DNA of 24,122 nt, taken from assembly GCA_012086945.1 (NCBI GenBank), contig GCA_012086945.1_3922.1; one strand, given 5' to 3'. This document shows, piece by piece, positions 675-20,453 of the stretch. How positions within the stretch are numbered: position 1 is the first letter of the stretch; each line of letters begins with the position of its first letter. A model generated the notes under the pieces. It did not search any database. It saw only the letters and a program-made list of their open reading frames with translations, and was not told the DNA's origin. Both the position numbers and the translations under genes were made by a program. The DNA comes from a phage.

Positions 675-877
675 TTTCTTTTACCACCAATCTCTACGTC
701 GATAACTTGAACATCACCAGCAACATCAAACTTATGAATGATACTTTCCACAGTGTAAGTCCAACCATCGATTCTAACCAACTCACCTTCCCGTGGGACG
801 ATTGGGTTACGTTGAGCTACCGTTGTAGTGGAGTGAACAACATCATAACAGTAGATATAGTTTACTAGGACTTCCAT
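671..877 (-). CDS. hypothetical protein (about 68 aa; track ORF 671..976 shortened to an internal ATG)
   Basis: ATG at 877 is preceded by GAGGT (TTGAGTGAGGTTTTCACG-ATG) and begins just after the stop of the 888..1145 gene; the longer track ORF would overlap that gene by about 90 nt. Confidence 0.4.
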   Translation of the reverse strand: MEVLVNYIYCYDVVHSTTTVAQRNPIVPREGELVRIDGWTYTVESIIHKFDVAGDVQVIDVEIGGKRK

Positions 878-887
878 CGTGAAAACC

Positions 888-1145
888 TCACTCAATAACC
901 GTAGTATGTGATTGACCATTTTTGCCATAGCTATAAGATGTTGTTGTTTGAGAGTTTGGACATCTGACAACAACAATATCTCTGCTTACAGTATCACCAT
1001 ATAACTCATAGACTATGCAATCTTGCATCTCTGGTGGGAGGCTGTAAGAAGCATTTTTATCTTCATAAGAGGGGTTGCAGCCAGATAGAAAAATTACTCC
1101 AAGTGCAACCATTGCTTTCACACAACTCTTAACCTTATTGTTCAC
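888..1145 (-). CDS. putative phage lipoprotein (85 aa), GTG start
   Basis: N-terminus MNNKVKSCVKAMVALGVIFLSG-C has a basic n-region, hydrophobic core and lipobox L-S-G-C (signal peptidase II type). Confidence 0.5.
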   Translation of the reverse strand: MNNKVKSCVKAMVALGVIFLSGCNPSYEDKNASYSLPPEMQDCIVYELYGDTVSRDIVVVRCPNSQTTTSYSYGKNGQSHTTVIE

Positions 1146-1281
1146 GATAGTCTACCTCTCTGTATGTTTTTAAATAGTGAGTGATGAGTTCTGGTAATTC
1201 ACTACGTTTAACGTTTGAACGAAGAAGCGTCCAGTCAAAACCTTTACCAACCCTTCCCCAGAGACTGTACATTTTCTTCAT
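1135..1281 (-). CDS. possible small ORF (about 48 aa, MKKMYSLWGRVGKGFDWTLLRSNVKRSELPELITHYLKTYREVDYREQ)
   Basis: Fills the gap between neighbours; its ATG overlaps the stop of the 1278..1511 gene as ATGA. Below the ORF-track length cut-off; hand translated. Confidence 0.25.
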   Translation of the reverse strand: MKKMYSLWGRVGKGFDWTLLRSNVKRSELPELITHYLKTYREVDYREQ

Positions 1282-1511
1282 AGCAACTCCAGAATATCAA
1301 TACGTTCACCTTTAAGTACTCCAGTACGGTCTTTTGCAATCTTACCGTCAACGATAAGGATGTGTGTAGACCTTAAAGCGTCGTTGTTAAAGGTTTTTAC
1401 GAACTTGCTAGGCATGACTACAATGGACATCTCCTGAATTAACTCTGGAGTGTAGCAGTTATCATGAAGTTGCTGAATAACGTCTGCAAGTGTCATTTTT
1501 GATGTCTCCAA
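1278..1511 (-). CDS. hypothetical protein (77 aa)
   Basis: Track ORF, co-oriented and tightly packed with neighbours; no recognised motif. Confidence 0.45.
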   Translation of the reverse strand: METSKMTLADVIQQLHDNCYTPELIQEMSIVVMPSKFVKTFNNDALRSTHILIVDGKIAKDRTGVLKGERIDILELL

Positions 1512-1702
1512 TATTCAATATCTACAAGTTCTTGTGCAATGCTTTTCAGATTACCTTTCAAGAAAACCTTCTCAGAACCTGAAAGAGATGAATTGTCAAT
1601 TAACCTGTTCATTCTCTCAAACAACTTCTGCTTACGATTTTTGATAGTTTCCTTTGAAGCACCTTTCATCATTGCTGCATGGGTTCTTCCACGGTGGCTC
1701 AT
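1493..1702 (-). CDS. hypothetical protein (69 aa)
   Basis: Strong Shine-Dalgarno AGGAGGG a few nt upstream of the ATG at 1702; immediately downstream of the polymerase gene. Confidence 0.5.
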   Translation of the reverse strand: MSHRGRTHAAMMKGASKETIKNRKQKLFERMNRLIDNSSLSGSEKVFLKGNLKSIAQELVDIEYWRHQK

Positions 1703-1763: not shown

Positions 1764-4463
1764 TTAGTGCACTTCAAGCCAGCTTTTACCAACCTTACCA
1801 GTACCTGTTACAAGTGTTTCTTTCTTAAGACCTAAATTCTTAGAAGCTTGTCCATAATACCAGTCAGTAACTGCTTTCACTTCTGCCGTCATACTTTCTG
1901 GACATTCCCAGCTTGTTTCATCGTGATATGCGCAGAGCAAACGAGCACCAATAGCTGGTTTACGACCATTTAACTTCATCAAACCTTCGTCAATCATACG
2001 ACGACAAGCAAGGTTAATTGCCTCATTTTGAATCTGAGCCTCTGAACCCATCAAAAGATAGTTCAACAGTTTGTGTGGAGATTTACACCACAACCAAGCT
2101 CCAGCAACCTTTACAAATCCCCCTTTAGAGATTGCAGCGGTCTTACCAAAAACCTCTTCAAGTGCCTTTTTAGTCGCTTTGTAGTCAGCTTCCAAGTCAT
2201 CTAGCAACTTCTTAATTTTAGGCAAACGAATAAAGTAAGTCTGTTTAGTCAGTGCACCTTCCTGAGTAGTTGCAGCTTTAATTGTCTTAGCAAACTTCTC
2301 ATCACCTGCACCGAACAGCAGTGCATAGATACCATTCTTAGCTTTTTTACGACCCTTACTAATCTCATGGAGAAGATTCTCATCCTGAGTGGCTCGACAA
2401 GTCAAGATATCCTGCTCATCATTCAAGCTAAAGTAAATACTGTTCAGTGTGTGTGCATCAGTCCCTGAATAGACAACGTACAGGTCATTCTCAGAGTCAT
2501 AGCGGAGGTACTTATCAATCTCTGGGTTGAGGTACTCATCAAAGTGTTTGCAGTAATAGCGTCCATCTTCTTGACGAATAAACTCAATCTCTTCTTTACC
2601 TTGCGTTACCGCTTTGGTGAAGTCTTTGTCACCCATAAAGTTACAAAGAAGAACTAGCTGGGCTGAGTTCATGTCTACAGAGACAACGTTAGTACCTTCT
2701 TCACAAATCCATACTGCCCTCATTGGTTCCCCATAGACAGCAGCACCAGACGGTACGTTTACAATACCATATTGTGTCATACGTCCAGTTGAAGTACCAA
2801 ATACCATTGCACCAGCACTAAGGCGACCATCTGGACGAATCTGGTTTAGCCAACCTTTTTCATCATCCTTTGAGTTCTCAATGGTTCTGCGTCGGTGCAT
2901 CAAAGTATAGTATTTAGCAATCTTCTGTCCAAGCTCACCTTCAATCGTATCATAAGAAGATTCAGTAAGTTTTGGTGAAGTACGGATTAAGCAAGGTTCA
3001 AGCAAATCCGTGTACTTCTTCACAGACCAGTTATGTTCGATGTACTGGACACCTTCGTGTTCAACATAACTCAACCCACACCGTTCAACCATCTCCTGCC
3101 ACTTAGGATGCTTTGTAATCATCTTTTTGTTGTCTTTGAAACGACAAACTTTGACAGGGCGACCGTCTGAATCTTTCTTGTAGTTCCAGTCATCTGGAAT
3201 CCAACCAACTGATTTCAAGTAGTCTTTAACAACTGCTACCTGAGTCATACGAGAAACTTCAAACTCAATTGGTGTATATGGTGCATCAATCAATCCTGTG
3301 TAGCGACTTGACTCAAGCTCAAAGTGGTTAACAACATGACTGTTATAGTACTTCACAGTTTTAACTGTTTTTACTGGCTTCCAGTCTTTGCATTTCTTAC
3401 CAATCTTTGCATTCAACTCATTGCAAATTGCACGAGCATCCTTCATTGCTACAAAACCCTCCTTGTACTCTTCACCAGTTACAGAGTTGGTTGGTGTATA
3501 GCAATTTCTCTTTTCAATGTTAAAAATCTTTGTAGTTGGCTTACCAAATGGCTTGATTTCATATGTCTGCATCTCACCGTTACGTACCTGCTGACGATAC
3601 TTCGTCTTAGGGTACTTGGTAATTCTCTTCAGTCCATCTGCGTGACCAAATGCTTCAACATACTCATTCCAAGCTTTTGCAAACTCTTCTCCAGTGACTT
3701 TACCTTTGGTCTTAATAGTTGGAGGAAGATGTGGTTCAACTTCTGAAGCAAGCTCATTAGTCAACTTGTCAAGTTCCTTTACATGGAACTCCATAAGCTC
3801 TTTATCAGCTTTCCAACCATTGATAGCTTGTTGACTCATCCAGAAAGATGTTTCTTTAGCTCGCATATAGGTTTCATAAGTGTCTATGCCACACTTCTTT
3901 AGCTTGAGATACTCATTATCCAGTGCGCGTTTAGTTTTGGCGTTAATACGGATATCTTCCACAACACGAGTGAAGATTTCTGCATTCCACACACCCCAAT
4001 GTTCAATCTCTGGTTTACGGACACCAACACGAGCACCCCATGCAGCCAAGCCATGAGCACCTTTATAGCCTTTTGGAGTTGGTCTATCCATCCACTGAAC
4101 ACGAGACTGGATAAGAGAATCCTGAAAGAAATTACTCCACGGCTTACACTTTGGATTATCAAAGTTCCATAAATCAGGTGCAATGTGATTGAAAACCCAC
4201 CAGTCATAACCCAGACCATTATGGATGCAAAGTCGTTTTGCCTTTAACGCAAACTCAACACCTTCACGTAAACCACCCTTAATGTACTTAGTGTACTTGT
4301 GACCGAGGATAGGCTCATCTGTAAAGACCCATACAGGTGGCTCTTCATCGTCAGATTTATAATCTGCGAAAGCCATTACGTGAACTTTAGTGAACTCAAG
4401 GAGTAAACCATCAGTTTCTGTATCACCAACTAAATGTAAGTTTTTAAAATCTACGTTTTCCAT
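1764..4463 (-). CDS. DNA polymerase, family A (T7 gp5-like) with N-terminal 3'-5' exonuclease domain
   Basis: Exo I motif VGDTETDG; motif A VVSVDMNSAQLVLL; motif B RKKAKNGIYALLFGAGDEKFA; motif C AYHDE; recalled similarity to T7 gp5 (e.g. YTPIEFEV vs YTPVEHVV). Start set at ATG 4463 (MENVDF...), preceded by AGAGGGAG; the track start at 4493 lacks an SD. Confidence 0.9.
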   Translation of the reverse strand: MENVDFKNLHLVGDTETDGLLLEFTKVHVMAFADYKSDDEEPPVWVFTDEPILGHKYTKYIKGGLREGVEFALKAKRLCIHNGLGYDWWVFNHIAPDLWNFDNPKCKPWSNFFQDSLIQSRVQWMDRPTPKGYKGAHGLAAWGARVGVRKPEIEHWGVWNAEIFTRVVEDIRINAKTKRALDNEYLKLKKCGIDTYETYMRAKETSFWMSQQAINGWKADKELMEFHVKELDKLTNELASEVEPHLPPTIKTKGKVTGEEFAKAWNEYVEAFGHADGLKRITKYPKTKYRQQVRNGEMQTYEIKPFGKPTTKIFNIEKRNCYTPTNSVTGEEYKEGFVAMKDARAICNELNAKIGKKCKDWKPVKTVKTVKYYNSHVVNHFELESSRYTGLIDAPYTPIEFEVSRMTQVAVVKDYLKSVGWIPDDWNYKKDSDGRPVKVCRFKDNKKMITKHPKWQEMVERCGLSYVEHEGVQYIEHNWSVKKYTDLLEPCLIRTSPKLTESSYDTIEGELGQKIAKYYTLMHRRRTIENSKDDEKGWLNQIRPDGRLSAGAMVFGTSTGRMTQYGIVNVPSGAAVYGEPMRAVWICEEGTNVVSVDMNSAQLVLLCNFMGDKDFTKAVTQGKEEIEFIRQEDGRYYCKHFDEYLNPEIDKYLRYDSENDLYVVYSGTDAHTLNSIYFSLNDEQDILTCRATQDENLLHEISKGRKKAKNGIYALLFGAGDEKFAKTIKAATTQEGALTKQTYFIRLPKIKKLLDDLEADYKATKKALEEVFGKTAAISKGGFVKVAGAWLWCKSPHKLLNYLLMGSEAQIQNEAINLACRRMIDEGLMKLNGRKPAIGARLLCAYHDETSWECPESMTAEVKAVTDWYYGQASKNLGLKKETLVTGTGKVGKSWLEVH

Positions 4464-4493
4464 TTTTACTCCCTCTAAAATCATTAACCTCAT

Positions 4494-4719
4494 ACATTAC
4501 TGCAAAAAATTATAAAAAGCAAGTTGACAATGTACTTGACAAGGTGTTAATCTTTGCGAAGTGGGTTTTACTTAAAAGGTTACTTAACAGTTTAACTATA
4601 CAGATACTTTAAAACTCTTAAAAGATTATTTAATAGCTTTTAAAAAGCTTTAAAGTATAACGTATAGAATACGTTAAGATAAAAGATTAAAACTTAATAG
4701 TTACTTAAAAGAGGCTTAC
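4494..4719. promoter_or_regulatory. AT-rich divergent intergenic control region
   Basis: Lies between the minus-strand polymerase and the plus-strand gene array. Contains direct repeats TTGACAA (4524..4530, 4536..4542), a minus-strand TATAAT (4509..4514), and an inverted repeat TAACGTAT-aga-ATACGTTA (4658..4676). Confidence 0.45.
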
Positions 4720-5944: not shown

Positions 5945-5961
5945 GTCTTTATAAATCTTAC

Positions 5962-5986
5962 AAGCCTCCTTAGTTGGGGGCTTTTT
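5962..5986 (+). terminator. rho-independent terminator candidate
   Basis: AAGCCTCC-ttagtt-GGGGGCTT stem-loop followed by a T-run, directly after the 5144..5944 gene. Confidence 0.5.
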
Positions 5987-6005
5987 AGTAATTAAGGGAG
6001 ATAAA

Positions 6006-6749
6006 ATGAGTAATATTATCGCATTTACTGGAAAGGCACGTTCTGGAAAAGACACCTCATGTTCTATTGTGAAGAACATCTTAGAGGATGAGTACGGCTA
6101 CAATGTTGCTGTAATGGCCTTTGCAGACAACCTTAAACTGTCTGCATCAAAGATATTTGACCTGACTTGGAATGACCTGTATGGTGAAACTAAAGAGACT
6201 CCGCAAGTATTTGACTTATCATATCCTGAACTGATGTTTAAAGTTACGGAAGCTATGGAGTTCACCTTCAGAGATGAACGCTACCATATGGACTTCAAGC
6301 TTATGTCAGAGTTAACCGGACGATTAATCATGGAGCTTAAGAAGGTTGCTAAACCTACCCTATTAACACGTCTGGGATTTAGTAAAAAGTATAAATTCTC
6401 ATCAAGACAAATTCAACAGATTTGGGGTACTGAAGTTGTCCGTAAAGTAATGGGCGACAAGTTCTGGTCTAAAGACCTTGAAAAAAGAATGGTTAGATTC
6501 CATGAAATGTGCTCACTTAGAAATCAATATGGTTTTGTCTTAATCAGTGATTTAAGATTTGACTCTGAAGCTGAATGGCTGAGTAGATTTGCACACCAAA
6601 CTATTGAAGTAAAAAGAGACAATGTGGACAAGGTTTCATCACATGTTTCAGAAAATGGGATTTCTACAAAATATGAGCGTGACATTATTCATAATAATGG
6701 TACTCTTGCAGACCTTGAGAACAAGCTAAGAGCCATCATTAAAGTTTAA
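6006..6749 (+). CDS. deoxynucleoside monophosphate kinase (T4 gp1-like P-loop kinase)
   Basis: N-terminal Walker A FTGKARSGKDTS matches the recalled T4 gp1 start (LSGVKRSGKDTT); similar length; strong SD AAGGGAG. Confidence 0.65.
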   Translation: MSNIIAFTGKARSGKDTSCSIVKNILEDEYGYNVAVMAFADNLKLSASKIFDLTWNDLYGETKETPQVFDLSYPELMFKVTEAMEFTFRDERYHMDFKLMSELTGRLIMELKKVAKPTLLTRLGFSKKYKFSSRQIQQIWGTEVVRKVMGDKFWSKDLEKRMVRFHEMCSLRNQYGFVLISDLRFDSEAEWLSRFAHQTIEVKRDNVDKVSSHVSENGISTKYERDIIHNNGTLADLENKLRAIIKV

Positions 6750-6757
6750 AAGAGATA

Positions 6758-6958
6758 ATGAAGATGAGAGTAAAAGACAATTTTAAAGTTATTGACCACC
6801 GTTTAGTGGAACTCTCATCTCTTTCCAATGAGGTAATGATTGAACGTCTTAAGAGAGTTGAATCACGAAGGAAAGAGATTGCAGATGAAATTCATGAACT
6901 GGACAAGATTGAAAATGGATTGAAGGCAGAACTACAACGAAGAGGTGCTAATGTCTAA
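6758..6958 (+). CDS. small hypothetical protein (66 aa), probable coiled coil
   Basis: Charged heptad-like sequence; stop overlaps the start of the primase-helicase gene. Confidence 0.45.
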   Translation: MKMRVKDNFKVIDHRLVELSSLSNEVMIERLKRVESRRKEIADEIHELDKIENGLKAELQRRGANV

Positions 6959-8936
6959 AGGTCGTAAATTGAAAGAGGCTGGTCAGTTTGTTGGTCATTG
7001 TGCATGTCCACGTTGTGGTTCATCAGATGCTGGTTCAATCTATCATCATGACGATGATTCTTATTCAATGACTTGCTTTAGTTGTAAAAAAGGTTTCCCA
7101 GAGTGGGATTTTGATAAAGGACAAATCGTGAGCACTTATTCTACTGGTTCAGACAATAAAAACCGCACTTTCCGTGGAATGGATTTAGACGATGTAAAAG
7201 AAAACCTAGAAGCAATGGACTTGAAAGATAGGAAGATTCCTGCAAAAGTCCTTGAACGCTTAGGTATCAAGGTTGACATTGACAGTGACGGTGAAATTGA
7301 TGCGCACTTCTATCCAACTTACAAACGTAATGAAGATGGTAAGTTAGAGCACGTTGGTTACCGTGTACGTCACCGTTACCCAGAAGACCATCCAAAAGAG
7401 CACCTACGTGGTAAGCTAAAAGACTTTTCAGGTGGTGTTGGAGACATTAAAGGTGAACTGGCAATGTTCGGTTCATGGATTGCTCCAGAAGGTGGTAACC
7501 GTCTATTCATCTGGGAAGGTGAGATGGAATGTGCGACAGCAATCTATATGACCTCTCTTGCGATTAAAGACAAGTCTCGTCGTAAGAATTACTGTCATGT
7601 ATCTGTTCCGTCAGGTGCAAACATCAAGTCTATCAAAGATAACTATCAGTACATCACATCATTTGATGAGATTTACTTGTGCTTTGATAACGATGAAGCA
7701 GGTGCTAAAGCTACCAAAGAGGCTGCTGGTATCTTACCTATTGAGAAGGTTCGTTTATTCCAGTATCCAGAAGGTGTAAAAGACCTTAATGAATGGTGGA
7801 CAAAGTTCTATAAAGAGAAAGACACAGTGCTTGAAGGGTTTAAGCAGCGTATCTACAATGCACCTCGTTATTGCCCTGCTGGTATCAAGAACTTTGCAGA
7901 TGGTTTTGAGGCAATGAAGAATCGTGGTCAGATTCCATTGATTCCTTTCCCAGAGTCTTTCGGGGATTTGAACAGACTGACTTATGGTGGTTATGGTTTA
8001 GGTGAGATTACGACTATTGCAGCACCATCTTCAGTAGGTAAGTCAGCTTACACTCGTGAGATGATTTATTCAGCTTGGAAAGAAACTGATTATAATATTG
8101 GTGTAATTCCTGTAGAAGATACTTACGAAGAACTTATGGAAATGCTCTGTGCAATCCACCTAAGTAAGCAGATTTCTGAGATTCCTTATGACGAACGTGA
8201 TTGGGATGAATTAAAAGGAGCACACGCAGAACTTTCAAAAGGTCGTCGTATCCACATTGTGGACCATCAAGGGGCTATTGACCAAGATAACCTGCTGGAA
8301 TTTGTTGACTATCTTGTTAACAGTTTAGATTGCAAGATTATCATTCTTGACCCTATTACGTTGGCTCTGTCACGTTCAGATACGGATGAAGAGGAAGTTC
8401 TGTCTGAATTATTGCGTCGTTGCAAACGCTACCAGTATGCACAGGTGAACGTCTGTCACGTTCGTAAGAGCGCAGGTGGTCAGAAAGCTAACTCTGAAGG
8501 TGGAGACATCTCTGAAGAGGATATTAAAGGTTCTGGTGCGTATTTCCAGATTTCTATGAACAACATTCTGTTAATGCGTAACAAGGTTGACCCAGACCCT
8601 GTTAAGAAAAACTTGACAAAAATCAAGTTAACTAAATGTCGTCGTCACGGTAAGTCAACGGGTATTGCTGGTCATACTTGGTACAATCCAGATACAGGAC
8701 GCCTCATCAAAGCATCTGGTTGTGGGGTTGACATTGATGGTGCAGCAGAAAATATTCGCCAACAGTTTGGTATTGGCGAAGCTGAAGACCATTACGATGA
8801 CTCTTTGCCACATTATGAGGATGAAGTGTTTGACCGTGAGACTGGTGAAGTCTATACTGAAGAGCAGCGTCAAAGCTCAACGATTCCACCTGTATTAAGT
8901 GAGGATGCAGATGACTGCCCATTCGAAACTGAGTGA
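6951..8936 (+). CDS. bifunctional DNA primase-helicase (T7 gp4-like)
   Basis: N-terminal zinc ribbon CPRCGSS...CFSCKK; TOPRIM motifs WEGEMECATAI and FDNDEAGAKATKEAAGILP; Walker A APSSVGKSAY; Walker B IIILDP; C-terminal KLTKCRRHGKSTGIAGHTW and acidic tail, all parallel to recalled T7 gp4. Start moved to ATG 6951 with GAGG upstream; the track start at 6945 is GTG. Confidence 0.9.
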   Translation: MSKGRKLKEAGQFVGHCACPRCGSSDAGSIYHHDDDSYSMTCFSCKKGFPEWDFDKGQIVSTYSTGSDNKNRTFRGMDLDDVKENLEAMDLKDRKIPAKVLERLGIKVDIDSDGEIDAHFYPTYKRNEDGKLEHVGYRVRHRYPEDHPKEHLRGKLKDFSGGVGDIKGELAMFGSWIAPEGGNRLFIWEGEMECATAIYMTSLAIKDKSRRKNYCHVSVPSGANIKSIKDNYQYITSFDEIYLCFDNDEAGAKATKEAAGILPIEKVRLFQYPEGVKDLNEWWTKFYKEKDTVLEGFKQRIYNAPRYCPAGIKNFADGFEAMKNRGQIPLIPFPESFGDLNRLTYGGYGLGEITTIAAPSSVGKSAYTREMIYSAWKETDYNIGVIPVEDTYEELMEMLCAIHLSKQISEIPYDERDWDELKGAHAELSKGRRIHIVDHQGAIDQDNLLEFVDYLVNSLDCKIIILDPITLALSRSDTDEEEVLSELLRRCKRYQYAQVNVCHVRKSAGGQKANSEGGDISEEDIKGSGAYFQISMNNILLMRNKVDPDPVKKNLTKIKLTKCRRHGKSTGIAGHTWYNPDTGRLIKASGCGVDIDGAAENIRQQFGIGEAEDHYDDSLPHYEDEVFDRETGEVYTEEQRQSSTIPPVLSEDADDCPFETE

Positions 8937-9192
8937 TAGTTACAAAAGAGAGGGGTTCACACCCTTCTTTGAAGAAAAAAGTTTGAATCAATTTCAAGCA
9001 GAGTGTTTGACAAAGATTGATAGGTTCTATATAATGCTCTACATGAAATGCGATGGAGAAGTTGAAATAGAAGAGCAGTTCCATCAAAGCATAATTACAG
9101 TCACCGTTACTCTACCTGAGCATAATATTGGTTGGCTATTTATAATTAAAGAAAATGTGTTTGAATATCAAGTATATCGGAGAATATTATGA
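8899..9192 (+). CDS. hypothetical protein, start uncertain (candidate ATGs at 8899, 8911, 9043)
   Basis: Overlaps the primase-helicase 3' end in another frame; its stop overlaps the next ATG as ATGA. Contains the consensus promoter at 9007..9035, so the real product may begin at ATG 9043. Confidence 0.35.
   Translation: MRMQMTAHSKLSDSYKREGFTPFFEEKSLNQFQAECLTKIDRFYIMLYMKCDGEVEIEEQFHQSIITVTVTLPEHNIGWLFIIKENVFEYQVYRRIL
9007..9035 (+). promoter_or_regulatory. sigma70-type promoter, perfect consensus (TTGACA-N17-TATAAT)
   Basis: TTGACA 9007..9012, 17-nt spacer, TATAAT 9030..9035, read directly from sequence. Confidence 0.6.
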
Positions 9193-9338
9193 AACACTCT
9201 AAAGCATTTGAAAAAGTTTTTGGGGATTCCTTAAAAGCCACTGCTGGAAAACCAGCAAAATACTATGAAGAGAAGCGTGTAAGAACTGGAAAAACTGCAC
9301 GTAAAGCAGCTTCTAAAGATAAGCACAACTTCCAGTAA
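9189..9338 (+). CDS. small basic protein (49 aa, MKHSKAFEKVFGDSLKATAGKPAKYYEEKRVRTGKTARKAASKDKHNFQ)
   Basis: ATG overlaps the upstream stop; GGAGA upstream; hand translated, below the track threshold. Confidence 0.35.
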   Translation: MKHSKAFEKVFGDSLKATAGKPAKYYEEKRVRTGKTARKAASKDKHNFQ

Positions 9339-9345
9339 TTAATGT

Positions 9346-9374
9346 TTGACAATAGAGTATCAACAAACTAGAAT
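9346..9374 (+). promoter_or_regulatory. sigma70-type promoter (TTGACA-N17-TAGAAT) upstream of the SSB gene
   Basis: TTGACA 9346..9351, 17-nt spacer, TAGAAT 9369..9374; about 37 nt upstream of ATG 9411. Confidence 0.5.
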
Positions 9375-9410
9375 TGGTACTCTTCATAAATTGAGATAGA
9401 GGTTTAAATA

Positions 9411-10268
9411 ATGTCTAAAGTTGTTAAAATGAAAGCTCCGGTAGAGAAATACAATGGCACTGAACGCCAAACTCTGCGATACCTGCTGAAAGATGTCTGG
9501 TTTTATTACCTGAACACTTCACCACGTCCGGGAAAAGGTAAGTCTATTGATAAGAAATTCCCAGGCAAAGACTGTAACTACAGCGTATCAATTCTGGCAG
9601 AAGACGGTAACAAACTGTTTAAAGAGTTTACTAAGTCTAAGAAAAATCCAGAAGGTTGGGATAAAGTCACTACTGAAGCAGTTGATGCAGACGACTTCGA
9701 AGAGAAGTTTGGTTGTAAACCACCTTTTGAAGCAGACACTTACTACATCTTGAAAGTAAGTCGTGCAGCAGCTTATAAAGATGGTGCTGTATGGACAGCT
9801 AAACAGTCATTCCCTGTTATGCTTATTGAAGAAGTAAATGGTAAGCGTGTAGCTGTTAAGCAGCCGATGAAGAAAATCAAAGCTCAAGCATCTGATAAAC
9901 ATGAAGATGATAAGAACTATGATGTAATTCATCCAGATATTGCAGTTGGTAACGGTTCTTTTGGTAGTGTGATTCTTTCTACTCACTTCTACACTTTTGA
10001 GAACAATGTTCTGACAAAACCTATTCAGGAACAGTTTATCATTGATACTCTTGTACCTTACACTGGTGGTAACGGTGCTAACGGTGAACCTGAACTGGAT
10101 GAAGACGAACTGGCTATGCTTGGTCTTGATGGTGTCGAAGATAACGGTGAAATCACTGAAGAAGACGCAACAGACCATAAATCTTCGAATGAGTTTGATG
10201 ATGGTGATGATGAAGATTTGCCAGACCCAGATGACGAAGAAGATGAAGACTTCGATACAGAAGACTAG
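9411..10268 (+). CDS. putative single-stranded DNA-binding protein (T7 gp2.5-like) with acidic C-terminal tail
   Basis: C-terminus DDGDDEDLPDPDDEEDEDFDTED; internal stretch IAVGNGSFGSV...LVPYTGGNG resembles recalled gp2.5 IIGGGSKLKV...LATFGGG; flanked by its own promoter and terminator. Confidence 0.5.
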   Translation: MSKVVKMKAPVEKYNGTERQTLRYLLKDVWFYYLNTSPRPGKGKSIDKKFPGKDCNYSVSILAEDGNKLFKEFTKSKKNPEGWDKVTTEAVDADDFEEKFGCKPPFEADTYYILKVSRAAAYKDGAVWTAKQSFPVMLIEEVNGKRVAVKQPMKKIKAQASDKHEDDKNYDVIHPDIAVGNGSFGSVILSTHFYTFENNVLTKPIQEQFIIDTLVPYTGGNGANGEPELDEDELAMLGLDGVEDNGEITEEDATDHKSSNEFDDGDDEDLPDPDDEEDEDFDTED

Positions 10269-10286
10269 TCTCTAAAAGTTACTTTA

Positions 10287-10314
10287 AAGCCCTGTACTTA
10301 GTATGGGGCTTTTT
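10287..10314 (+). terminator. rho-independent terminator candidate
   Basis: AAGCCCT...GGGGCTT stem followed by TTTTT, directly after the SSB gene. Confidence 0.5.
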
Positions 10315-10330
10315 CATATGGAGAGCCATA

Positions 10331-11377
10331 ATGGAGAAGTACACATTAACAAAGCTTCCCGATTCAGTTACACATGTTTTTATTGACTCTGACAGTATTG
10401 CCTATAAAGGTGCTTGTGTAGTTGAGAAAGCAAAATATAAATACGTCAATAAACTCACAGCAGAAGAGTCTGAGCCATTTGATAATGCGAAAGATGCTGC
10501 AAGATGGTTAGCAGACCAGAGAATCCTTGTGGAAGAGCTTGGCCTGACATTTGATGAAGATGAATGGGAAAGACAAACTTGGAAAGAAGCTAAGAGTGAA
10601 AAAGAAGCTATCATGGCTACTCAGCAGGTTCTTCAGGAATGGCTTAAGGTTGTTGGTAAAGAAAGAACTTGGGTAGGTTACTTAACAGAGAAGGGTGTAC
10701 ATAAACATAAAGACATTAAAGGTCTTGAGCACCAATATCAAGGTAACCGTAAAGATGCTGTCACACCAACACATTTAGTCGCTTGTCGTGAATACCTTCT
10801 GTCAAGACCAGAGTTCAAATTGATTCTTGATGGATTTGAAGCTGACTCTATCGTTATTGCTAAAGCTGAAAAGATGGGTAAAAAGGCTGCCTTAATGAGT
10901 ATTGATAAAGACCTTCGACAAGCTGAAGGTACTTACTGCATTGATATGACCTATGAAAAATCACCTTTAATTTTTATTGCTGATAACAACGTTGGTGAAA
11001 TTTGGGATTGCCCAATAAAATCAACACCAAAAGCTAAGAAGACAGTTGGGGTAGGTTTTAAATTTCTTTGTTATCAAGCTGTGGCTGGTGATAATGCAGA
11101 TAACTATTTTGGTTTAAAGGGCGTTGGTAAGGTTGCTGTAATGAAAGCCCTTGAAGGTAAAACTACTTACAAAGAGTGTCTTGATGCAATCTATGAACTT
11201 TATGCTAAGAAAGAGTCCTACACTTATGTCTCGTGGGATGGTCAAACAATTACCAGAACACCTTTAGAACTAATGCAGCAACACTTCTTCTTAGCTTATC
11301 AGGAAAGAAATAAGAAAGACGATTTTACTTTTGATAAGTATGGGTGGACACCAAATGTTAACTCAACAAACTCTTAA
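10331..11377 (+). CDS. 5'-3' exonuclease / flap endonuclease (T7 gp6-like)
   Basis: N-terminal acidic VFIDSDSIAYKG; helix-3-turn-helix-like AVAGDNADNYFGLKGVGKVAVMKAL; SIDKD motif as in recalled gp6 (ISCDKD). Confidence 0.7.
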   Translation: MEKYTLTKLPDSVTHVFIDSDSIAYKGACVVEKAKYKYVNKLTAEESEPFDNAKDAARWLADQRILVEELGLTFDEDEWERQTWKEAKSEKEAIMATQQVLQEWLKVVGKERTWVGYLTEKGVHKHKDIKGLEHQYQGNRKDAVTPTHLVACREYLLSRPEFKLILDGFEADSIVIAKAEKMGKKAALMSIDKDLRQAEGTYCIDMTYEKSPLIFIADNNVGEIWDCPIKSTPKAKKTVGVGFKFLCYQAVAGDNADNYFGLKGVGKVAVMKALEGKTTYKECLDAIYELYAKKESYTYVSWDGQTITRTPLELMQQHFFLAYQERNKKDDFTFDKYGWTPNVNSTNS

Positions 11378-11846
11378 AGAGTACCTACATTATGACCCCG
11401 AAACAGGGGTCTTTACTTGGATTAAGAAATCTGCTAGACACACAAAAATTGGCTCTGTTGCAGGTACAAACTTAAGAGGGTATACCAGAATTTATTTGTT
11501 TGGTAAGGGCTATTATGCACATACCCTAGCCGTTCTGTATATGGATGGATACCTACCTGAGTGTGTTGACCATAAAAATCATGTAACACTAGACAATCGC
11601 TGGGTAAATCTTAGGGCATGTACGTTATCAGAGAACCAATGCAATAGGTTGCTCAATAAGAACAATAAATCAGGTGTTAAAGGTGTGTACTACAAAAAAC
11701 AGTATGGTAAGTGGTCTACACAGATAACTTTTAAGAAGAGGGTCTACTTCTTCGGCAACTATGACACTATTGATGAAGCAGCAGAGGTTGTAAATAGGGA
11801 ACGTCAACGTTTACACAAAGAGTTTGCTAATAAAGGTGATGAATGA
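11331..11846 (+). CDS. HNH homing endonuclease with AP2-like DNA-binding domain (true start possibly ATG 11355)
   Basis: YDPETGVFTW...GYTRIYLFGKGYYAHTLAVLYMDGYLPECVDHKNHVTLDNRWVNLRACTLSENQCN...SGVKGVYY...GKWSTQITFKKRVYFFGNYDTIDEA fits the classic free-standing phage HNH plus AP2 pattern; overlaps the exonuclease 3' end. Confidence 0.75.
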   Translation: MISMGGHQMLTQQTLKEYLHYDPETGVFTWIKKSARHTKIGSVAGTNLRGYTRIYLFGKGYYAHTLAVLYMDGYLPECVDHKNHVTLDNRWVNLRACTLSENQCNRLLNKNNKSGVKGVYYKKQYGKWSTQITFKKRVYFFGNYDTIDEAAEVVNRERQRLHKEFANKGDE

Positions 11847-12343
11847 GAAAAATAAAAGGTTTTGGCAATTGCCCTGAATATGGACATTGGGTTTCACTAT
11901 GTGGTGAAGTTGACCCAGCAAAGCACTTTGGTTTTGTCTACCTAGTGTACTGCAAAAAGACTGGACAGTACTATTTGGGTAAGAAACAGCTTAATAGTGT
12001 GACTAAAAGAAAAGTTGCTGGCAAGACTCGGAAGAAGGTAGTCACTAAGGAGAGTGATTGGATGACTTATGAAACTTCTTCTGAGTATATTAAAAAAGAT
12101 ATTGAGAGCTTTGGAAAAGAATTTTTTGACTTTTACATTATTCAGACCTACTACACGAAAGGTGGCCTAGTCTATGGTGAAGCAAACCTTCAACATAAAT
12201 TCGATGTAATGACAAAAAGGATTGACTCTAAGCTCAGACTCTTCTACAATGCCAATATTGCAGCAATTAAGTTTATTACTAAAGAAACTTATGAAGATGC
12301 TGAAAAAAGAATCCATAAGGTAATGAAAGCAAACTGTGCTTGA
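11843..12343 (+). CDS. hypothetical protein (166 aa); weak GIY-YIG-like motif
   Basis: ATG overlaps the upstream stop as ATGA; FVYLVYCKKTGQYYLGKK has GIY-x10-YIG-like spacing, but downstream catalytic residues were not confirmed. Confidence 0.45.
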   Translation: MRKIKGFGNCPEYGHWVSLCGEVDPAKHFGFVYLVYCKKTGQYYLGKKQLNSVTKRKVAGKTRKKVVTKESDWMTYETSSEYIKKDIESFGKEFFDFYIIQTYYTKGGLVYGEANLQHKFDVMTKRIDSKLRLFYNANIAAIKFITKETYEDAEKRIHKVMKANCA

Positions 12344-13976: not shown

Positions 13977-13982
13977 ACTAGG

Positions 13983-14004
13983 GAGCCTCTTCGGAGGCTC
14001 TTTT
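13983..14004 (+). terminator. rho-independent terminator with UUCG tetraloop
   Basis: GAGCCTC-TTCG-GAGGCTC perfect 7-bp stem followed by TTTT. Confidence 0.7.
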
Positions 14005-14022
14005 CATCTGTAGGATTTAAAA

Positions 14023-20284: not shown

Positions 20285-20322
20285 GGTGGTGTGAGTCTTG
20301 ATAGGCTTACATCACCTTTTTT
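20285..20322 (+). terminator. rho-independent terminator candidate after nrdD
   Basis: GGTGGTGTGAG ... CTTACATCACC stem (with G-U pairs) followed by TTTTTT. Confidence 0.5.
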
Positions 20323-20336
20323 ATTGGATGTTAGAT

Positions 20337-20453
20337 ATGGCAGAGAGTATTATTGGGTTGTTCATAGGTTCTGTCTTACTAGGGTTCTTTTTAGGACTCT
20401 CTTATTGTGAATTAAGAGGCAAGTTAAAATGTTTAAAATATCAAAAGCGTTGA
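20337..20453 (+). CDS. possible small hydrophobic peptide (38 aa, MAESIIGLFIGSVLLGFFLGLSYCELRGKLKCLKYQKR)
   Basis: Hand translated; one predicted transmembrane helix; weak SD. Confidence 0.25.
   Translation: MAESIIGLFIGSVLLGFFLGLSYCELRGKLKCLKYQKR

Follow-up and report, generated by a model that had tools for sequence, protein, structure and literature searches.

Gene 32 of phage T4, which encodes an SSB (a protein that binds single-stranded DNA), has promoters of its own and a terminator downstream and is also read from upstream, and this stoichiometric protein is over-produced relative to the neighbouring enzymes. The T4 protein belongs to an unrelated SSB family, has a zinc-binding motif and autoregulates its translation via the mRNA leader. 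In phage T7 the SSB is the product of gene 2.5 (PDB 1JE5; SBB_T7, PF21265), and a dedicated promoter, phi2.5, lies 51 nt ahead of that gene. The locus analysed here lies in a window of 24,122 nt of phage DNA (GenBank assembly GCA_012086945.1). It follows the same logic as T4 gene 32, an SSB gene of a large myovirus that would be over-produced, although autoregulation is not indicated by the present data. It resembles T7 in having a dedicated promoter, but phi2.5 is a promoter for the phage RNA polymerase whereas the one found here is of the host sigma-70 type, and Felix-type phages are myoviruses of about 87 kb, unlike T7. An earlier note on this DNA had described the gene as a putative SSB gene forming a stand-alone unit with its own strong promoter and terminator; its SSB call rested on the acidic tail of the protein and the gene neighbourhood. 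We consider it probable that the gene encodes a gp2.5-type SSB and that a boost promoter and a partial terminator frame it within a longer operon.

The replication module and the ORF104 protein

When positions 9000..10500 of the window were compared with phage records, 256 matched, 187 of them (~190) at 95–99% identity. Phages of Escherichia, Salmonella or Shigella predominate among the 256 and those records that were inspected belong to Felixounavirus or sister genera within Ounavirinae. The window is a Felixounavirus replication module, and the gene of interest is homologous to ORF104 of Felix O1 (NP_944970.1). In Felix O1 the order is ORF101 (primase/helicase, gene '4A'), the small ORF102 and ORF103, ORF104 and then ORF105 (exodeoxyribonuclease, gene '6'), and the succession of primase/helicase, ORF104 homologue and exonuclease is kept in all Ounavirinae lineages compared. 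T7-type replisome genes occur together in the window, namely those for a primase/helicase with Toprim and DnaB_C domains, a 5'-3' exonuclease and a DNA_pol_A polymerase (Table 1); HNH and GIY-YIG endonuclease genes come after the exonuclease gene and ribonucleotide reductase genes lie further right.

Table 1. Features of the window (positions counted from its first letter) and the promoter hexamers of the lineages compared
Feature	Position	Strand	Details
Family-A DNA polymerase gene (DNA_pol_A)	1764..4493	-	Replisome partner
Primase/helicase gene, T7 gp4-type	6945..8936	+	Toprim and DnaB_C domain matches; replisome partner
Promoter-like site	8830..8858	+	TTGACC-N17-TATACT; 3' end of primase/helicase gene; equals Felix O1 P102 (PMC3185647)
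Promoter-like site	9007..9035	+	TTGACA-N17-TATAAT, perfect 12/12; inside ORF102
P104, predicted sigma-70-type promoter	9346..9374	+	TTGACA 9346..9351, 17-nt spacer, TAGAAT 9369..9374
Inverted repeat	9354..9383	+	AGAGTATCAA (9354..9363) / TTGGTACTCT (9374..9383); over spacer, -10 and predicted start
Shine-Dalgarno sequence	9398..9402	+	AGAGG, 8 nt ahead of ATG at 9411
gp2.5-like SSB gene, putative	9411..10268	+	285 aa; OB-fold core ~1-217; acidic disordered tail 221-285
t104, predicted intrinsic terminator	10286..10314	+	12-bp stem, TTA loop, T-run 10310..10314
5'-3' exonuclease gene, T7 gene 6 analogue	10331..11377	+	Starts 17 nt past terminator
Promoter, Felixounavirus			-35 TTGACA; -10 TAGAAT
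Promoter, Suspvirus and Mooglevirus			-35 TTGACA; -10 TAAGAT (variants TAATAT, TAACAT)
Promoter, Hafnia phage			-35 TTGACT; -10 TAAAGT
Promoter, Pectobacterium phage			-35 TTGACA; -10 TAACAT
Promoter, Kolesnikvirus			-35 TTGCAA; -10 TAAGAT preceded by TGn (extended -10)

Taken alone, the ORF104 protein is assigned to no family by Pfam (E of 0.01 or less) or NCBIfam, its only match among the PDB sequences is a chance one (E 0.96) and among the PHROGs it falls in PHROG 3877, 'unknown function'. A profile built from 12 homologues and run against 1.84 billion proteins recovered 64 cluster representatives, most of 200–245 aa, and among 62 aligned family sequences seven match SBB_T7 and five match Enc34_ssDNA-bd (PF10991). 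The 62-sequence profile found T7 gp2.5 (1je5, E 2.6e-8) and 4klk (E 3e-3) in an hmmsearch of the PDB sequences, and hhalign of the family profile with T7 gp2.5 gave a probability of 94.5% (E 7.5e-8) over 84 columns. In this alignment the invariant Y194 is paired with Y158 of T7, which we take to be the aromatic residue in the DNA-binding groove, and the invariant F196 with W160. An AlphaFold model from the 12 sequences already had a usable core; with 62 sequences the mean pLDDT was 83.8 and the means of 10-residue blocks were 83–97 up to residue 220, whereas an insert around residues 130–160 is modelled at lower confidence and the tail is mostly of low confidence in both models (block means 38–78). 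In Foldseek searches the gp2.5 family takes the first eight places, albeit with modest E-values, and the only strong structural neighbours are three SSBs of that family. The matches to the SSB of Enterobacter phage Enc34 (PDB 5ODK/5ODL) and to DUF2815 (PDB 4KLK; PF10991) are to shorter solved chains (166–173 residues, that of Enc34 being C-terminally truncated), and the window protein has no direct Pfam match of this kind. With about 15% identity to T7 gp2.5, and 285 aa with inserts compared with 232 aa, the ORF104 protein is a divergent member whose homology is visible only via intermediate sequences and predicted structure.

The tail is more strongly acidic than that of T7 gp2.5, with 32 D/E and one K/R in 65 residues against 22 acidic and three basic in 47. 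Near its end the motif F-(D/E/K)-T-(E/D) contains the invariant residues F281 (checked across 12 homologues) and T283; F281 sits four residues short of the C-terminus (position -5), while in T7 gp2.5 the aromatic residue is at the very C-terminus. The SSB call of the earlier note thus gains support from the family profile, from the hhalign and hmmsearch matches to T7 gp2.5 and from the predicted structure, and we conclude that the ORF104 protein is very probably the phage's gp2.5-type SSB, with ssDNA binding predicted from homology and model. That an OB-fold protein of this kind should have some other role, for example as an inhibitor of a host function or in RNA binding, is highly improbable: no curated family names the protein and it has about 50 more residues than T7 gp2.5, the less confident insert included, but its strong structural neighbours are SSBs only, its profile links to SBB_T7, the aromatic residue at the T7 Y158 position is conserved and the place between primase/helicase and exonuclease is kept throughout the subfamily.

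The same relationship raises the question of recombination, as the gp2.5 family has been grouped with the phage recombinases and annealing in vivo has been seen with members of it (PMC2896510). The ORF104 protein may, by analogy with T7, double as an annealing protein. A stronger form of this idea, in which the protein is chiefly a single-strand annealing recombinase and the host SSB serves replication, would also fit the adjoining 5'-3' exonuclease gene, a typical exonuclease/annealase pairing, but we regard it as unlikely. The two activities are not exclusive, one protein doing both jobs in T7; the neighbours are a primase/helicase and a polymerase of the T7 type; an acidic tail that carries an aromatic residue is a feature for docking on the replisome; and over 1-50000 and 55000-86155 the Felix O1 RefSeq record carries no annotation for another SSB. 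In the reading that we prefer the gene supplies the SSB of a T7-like replisome with a family-A polymerase, a gp4-type primase/helicase and a gp6-type exonuclease. The gp2.5-type core would coat the ssDNA of the lagging strand and the long acidic tail with its invariant Phe probably docks on the polymerase and the helicase, as it does in T7.

Tblastn gave 302 positive phage records, and in 60 rows sampled from these the homologue is labelled 'hypothetical protein' in nearly all, the exceptions being unannotated records and one 'gp066'; the SunLIRen record calls it 'putative DNA primase/helicase'. Literature searches for an earlier SSB or gp2.5 assignment returned none, although Felix O1 may be entered among the gp2.5-like genes that Lopes et al. 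(2010) list phage by phage in their supplement. With the SSB assignment the T7-like replisome of the phage is, on paper, complete, in a group that includes Felix O1, the Salmonella typing phage, and many isolates for therapy and biocontrol.

Predicted promoter P104 and its conservation

The hexamers of P104 match the sigma-70 consensus at 11 of 12 positions, both in a consensus scan and by direct reading. They lie in an intergenic gap of 72 nt with 36 nt between the -10 and the ATG (the earlier note had about 37), and transcription is predicted to start at ~9379-9382. A match of this quality is in itself little guide. Two sites in the window reach 11/12 or better compared with 1.05 +/- 1.03 per shuffle (300 dinucleotide shuffles, 29% of which had two or more), and the number reaching 9/12 or better is at shuffle level; as the window is not enriched, counts of promoter-like sites were dropped as evidence for P104. 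By simple arithmetic from the shuffle density, about 0.002 sites of at least 11/12 would be expected on the sense strand of this 72-nt gap.

Comparison across the subfamily was more informative. The set consisted of Suspvirus (CHB7, SUSP2), Mooglevirus (SFPB, Michonne, Sf17), an unclassified Hafnia phage, a Pectobacterium phage, Kolesnikvirus (SunLIRen, phi63_307) and 31 IMG/VR loci. Identity of the ORF104 protein drops to 44–51% in the Hafnia phage, the Pectobacterium phage and Kolesnikvirus. Nevertheless a -35, a spacer of exactly 17 nt and a -10 are present in the upstream gap in 14 distinct sequences from six lineages (Table 1), and the -10 reads TAnnnT in all six, these being the positions most important to sigma-70. 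Lineages differ in their spacers and flanks and in how far the -10 is from the ATG (36 to 58 nt); GAGAnAGAGG, in the Shine-Dalgarno region, is shared by Felixounavirus, Suspvirus and Mooglevirus. In the Hafnia phage and Kolesnikvirus, which are without ORFs 102 and 103, the promoter stands alone in a gap of 102–116 nt and is preceded by A/T-rich tracts resembling UP elements. It should also be noted that neighbouring ORFs in the cluster mostly abut or overlap, and that each of the few intergenic gaps of more than 40 nt holds a signal (a terminator in 5945..6005, the promoter in 9339..9410, t104 in 10269..10330 and a terminator in 13977..14022). It is because the signals keep the same gap across lineages, and not because of their number, that P104 appears to be more than a chance match, and we take it as functional on the strength of this selective conservation of hexamers and spacing, its activity and strength being predicted on the same basis. 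The promoter that the earlier note had proposed is in this sense borne out.

P104 is absent from the promoters listed for Felix O1, which include P102 (Whichard et al., 2010, PMC3185647), but a promoter is annotated here in NC_028825 and MZ726791 as 'similar to TTGACA(N15-18)TATAAT with 1bp mismatch'. Literature searches for a transcription start or RNA-seq map in the Felixounavirus group found none. RT-PCR of Felix O1 detected ORF105 transcripts, which were highest at 5 min, those of ORF104 being highest at 25 min (PMC3185647). Such a later peak is not the simple expectation for a constitutive host-type promoter and leaves room for some regulation. The omission from the Felix O1 list, this late maximum and the shuffle-level counts would all suit a fortuitous match, or one inactive in infection, with gene 104 read only from upstream promoters. 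We hold this to be very unlikely, given that TTGACA or a near variant, the 17 nt and TAnnnT are kept in six lineages with divergent spacers and flanks, that the site is alone in its gap where ORFs 102 and 103 are missing and that long gaps in the cluster are rare and all signal-bearing. With P104 as a working promoter, the rightward cluster would be transcribed by unmodified host sigma-70 RNA polymerase; use of the host enzyme had been proposed in the earlier note and agrees with the Felix O1 paper, which found neither a phage RNA polymerase nor T4-like specificity factors and describes the temporal control as not understood (PMC3185647).

Terminator t104 and probable read-through into the exonuclease gene

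The SSB stop codon (10266..10268) is followed by the hairpin AAAGCCCTGTAC-TTA-GTATGGGGCTTT (10286..10312), with a folding energy of -15.2 kcal/mol; the 62-nt intergenic RNA as a whole gives -18.7 kcal/mol (z = -2.9 against shuffles). A terminator scan passed over it, the stem having been taken to include some of the T-run. In every lineage examined the downstream gap is of 62–68 nt with a hairpin and T-run inside. The stem is constant in Felixounavirus, Suspvirus and Mooglevirus while the loop varies (TTA, TCA, TCC, TAT, AGAC, AGAAC), in Kolesnikvirus the arms are swapped (GGGGTATGGGG-tttt-CCCTGTACCC) and the stems of the Hafnia phage (GGCACTC/GGGTGCC) and the Pectobacterium phage (AAAGGCTGCTC/GAGTGGCCTTT) are unrelated. 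Position and shape that are held while the sequence turns over are the signature of a working terminator, and the claim of a terminator at 10287..10314 in the earlier note stands, with one further base at its left end. In Felix O1 t104 is listed in Table 2 of the genome paper at 69298..69323 with the same 26 bases and -12.2 kcal/mol (PMC3185647), and at least four GenBank records carry it as a feature (OX016465, NC_028825, MZ726791, NC_028247). Both signals, with the same sequences at homologous positions, had thus been predicted by others (t104 by Whichard et al., 2010, PMC3185647, and features in NC_028825/MZ726791), and by comparative criteria they are real; in those sources the enclosed gene was left as a 'hypothetical protein' and read-through was not discussed. 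The only increment of the present work is the function assigned to this conserved 'hypothetical' Ounavirinae gene.

Whether the unit stands alone depends on what enters it from upstream and what leaves it downstream. Two promoter-like sites, at 8830 and 9007, lie 350–580 nt upstream on the same strand. Suspvirus and Mooglevirus keep the -35 of the 9007 site, but it lies within a run of E-C-L-T codons that is likewise conserved, and its conservation is therefore ambiguous. A relaxed terminator scan from 5982 to 10311 gave no convincing intergenic terminator. With both sites open towards the SSB gene and no terminator before it, 'stand-alone' can be only partly right. On the other side, the 17 nt between the t104 T-run and the exonuclease ATG contain only the Shine-Dalgarno sequence of that gene, no promoter was seen by eye in this interval or across t104, and further downstream a good promoter-like site is first met at 12222..12250. 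As the gap has no room for a promoter in any lineage, t104 must leak if the exonuclease gene is to be read, and the detection of ORF105 transcripts by RT-PCR together with the lack of a downstream promoter points the same way. We infer that t104 is a leaky, or partial, terminator and that expression of the exonuclease depends on read-through. The layout is common in the window, where, of six intergenic terminators on the + strand, five lie 19–24 nt ahead of the next start codon (the others at ~5982, 14001, 18107 and 22549). Terminators that adjoin a start codon in this way would act as dimmers and not as stops, which corrects a simple transcription map and is relevant to the engineering of these phages or the reuse of their parts.

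The unit that the earlier note had called stand-alone therefore does have its own promoter and terminator, but it sits in a co-directional cluster with open sites upstream and a downstream gene that would need read-through, and it is best described as a boost cassette inside a long operon. P104 in its 72-nt gap would add initiations just ahead of the SSB gene and t104 in its 62-nt gap would halt a fraction of the polymerases, giving an SSB message of about 930 nt if it runs from ~9381 to 10314. Because P104 would add initiations and t104 remove a fraction, SSB mRNA would be in excess over that of the neighbouring enzyme genes; the high-level expression that the earlier note had suggested is likewise an expectation from the sequence.

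The inverted repeat across the promoter

The arms of the repeat that spans P104 form 10 pairs in the window, including one T:G, and the Felix O1 version is a perfect 10-bp palindrome. A repeat is found at the promoter in every lineage examined and a hairpin is predicted in all, although register and loop length vary. The outer pairs covary, the sixth being A-T, G-C or T-A and the seventh G-T, G-C or A-T; the pairs were tabulated by a script anchored on the common GTA...TAC core, an ungapped alignment having lost the arm register across genera. The predicted fold has -5.6 kcal/mol as DNA and about -12 kcal/mol as RNA (flanks included). Per lineage, + strand RNA segments of 57 nt fold better than shuffles (p = 0.022, 0.036, 0.031, 0.002 and 0.069; Fisher combination ~3e-5), although it should be noted that the segments were picked after the repeat had been noticed. 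The asymmetry between + and - strand folding is inconsistent among lineages and so does not decide between a role at the RNA and at the DNA level. Within the window alone GAGTA-N10-30-TACTC has no significance, with one occurrence here and at least one in 42% of shuffles.

It follows from the position of the repeat that transcripts started at P104 would be without its 5' arm while read-through transcripts would carry the full hairpin. The repeat may work as an operator or as a signal for processing or pausing, or it may do nothing. That it is a conserved regulatory device, either an operator or a hairpin specific to read-through, is a tentative idea, suggested by the sequence comparison, which we put forward as doubtful. 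In the operator form it would time SSB synthesis or give feedback on it, and in the hairpin form only upstream-derived transcripts would be marked for processing or pausing, so that the promoter in a hairpin would serve as an insulator.

Carried further, this would make the unit monocistronic and insulated, with the repeat stopping or processing upstream transcripts, an efficient t104 and an exonuclease gene expressed by other means. The overlap of the repeat with the -10 in every lineage and the folding of its + strand RNA (p 0.002-0.07) are in favour of such a design, as is the finding that several promoter-like sites in Felix O1 adjoin or overlap terminator hairpins, so that upstream RNAs could end where new ones start. 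We nevertheless judge it quite unlikely, as the repeat is weak and in most lineages is not followed by a T-run, as the exonuclease gene has no space for a promoter of its own after t104 and as ORF105 is transcribed in Felix O1. The nested cassette with a partial terminator remains our preferred description. An insulator built in this way would echo the promoter–terminator overlaps found elsewhere in Felix O1. A claim that GAGTA/TACTC is a shared promoter motif was dropped, there being no enrichment around the Felix O1 promoter-like sites (five seen against three expected for each), but in its paired form the repeat occurs three times in Felix O1, always at a promoter-like site, in what is a post hoc observation on small numbers.

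Promoter-like sites around the probable SSB gene

Features of the window and of Felix O1 considered here
Feature	Position	Strand	Remarks
Divergent region	window 4494..4719		between minus-strand polymerase gene and rightward cluster
Intergenic terminators	window 5982, 10311, 14001, 18107, 22549	+	
Sixth terminator	window 20317	+	inside listed small ORF 20298..20453
Promoter-like site	window 9007..9035		perfect consensus TTGACA-N17-TATAAT; within ORF102 CDS (8911..9192)
Inverted repeat	window 9354..9383		overlaps spacer, −10 and start site of predicted SSB promoter
HNH endonuclease gene	window 11331..11846		after exonuclease gene
SegE-like GIY-YIG nuclease gene	window 11843..12343		next after HNH gene; Pfam
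Promoter-like sites overlapping or abutting hairpins or published terminators	Felix O1 2298, 16645, 18713, 23552, 85488	16645 and 18713, −	

The inverted repeat at the predicted SSB promoter is present in all Ounavirinae lineages examined (homologous sites in the compared loci L006, L007, L009, L011, L012 and L014), where it shows compensatory changes (A-T, G-C and T-A) as well as G:T wobbles, and the Felix O1 version is a perfect 10-bp palindrome. The SSB gene would also be transcribed from the promoter-like site within ORF102, the −35 of which is kept in Suspvirus and Mooglevirus but overlaps conserved codons (E-C-L-T). The divergent region beside the polymerase gene contains two overlapping TTGACA boxes, at 4524 and 4536, with no good −10 for either, and no clear promoters are found in the Felix O1 96-97 gap either (Felix O1 genome paper, PMC3185647).

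Terminators and the SSB–exonuclease gap

Each of the five intergenic terminators lies 19–24 nt ahead of the next start codon, so that there is no space for a promoter between terminator and start codon, and partial terminators seem to be the design basis of the rightward cluster. In the minimum-energy fold of the SSB–exonuclease gap, UCUCUA just 3′ of the SSB stop (10269..10274) pairs, outside the terminator hairpin, with UGGAGA of the exonuclease Shine–Dalgarno region (10319..10326). Similar pairing is predicted for the Suspvirus and Hafnia phage gaps and is not predicted in that of Mooglevirus; on read-through RNA such pairing could damp exonuclease translation. Promoter/terminator overlap may be a recurring design in Felix O1: the spacer of the site at 2298 is filled by one hairpin, and at three other sites the −10 is followed immediately by t29, t35 or a GGCTCC...GGGAGCC-T6 hairpin.

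Endonuclease genes and annotation of relatives

The HNH gene is found in the window phage, Felix O1 and ASO1A and is missing from AYO145A and Tribble, a presence/absence polymorphism that is typical of a homing endonuclease. The label ‘NAD synthetase’ carried by the GIY-YIG nuclease gene in PHROGs and several records is probably a misannotation. Among the SSB homologues, that of Erwinia phage SunLIRen (L009 2261..3124) is annotated ‘putative DNA primase/helicase’, and that of Shigella phage SFPB (L005 820..1679) is present as two CDS (820..1227 and 1227..1679), suggesting a frameshift or sequencing error.
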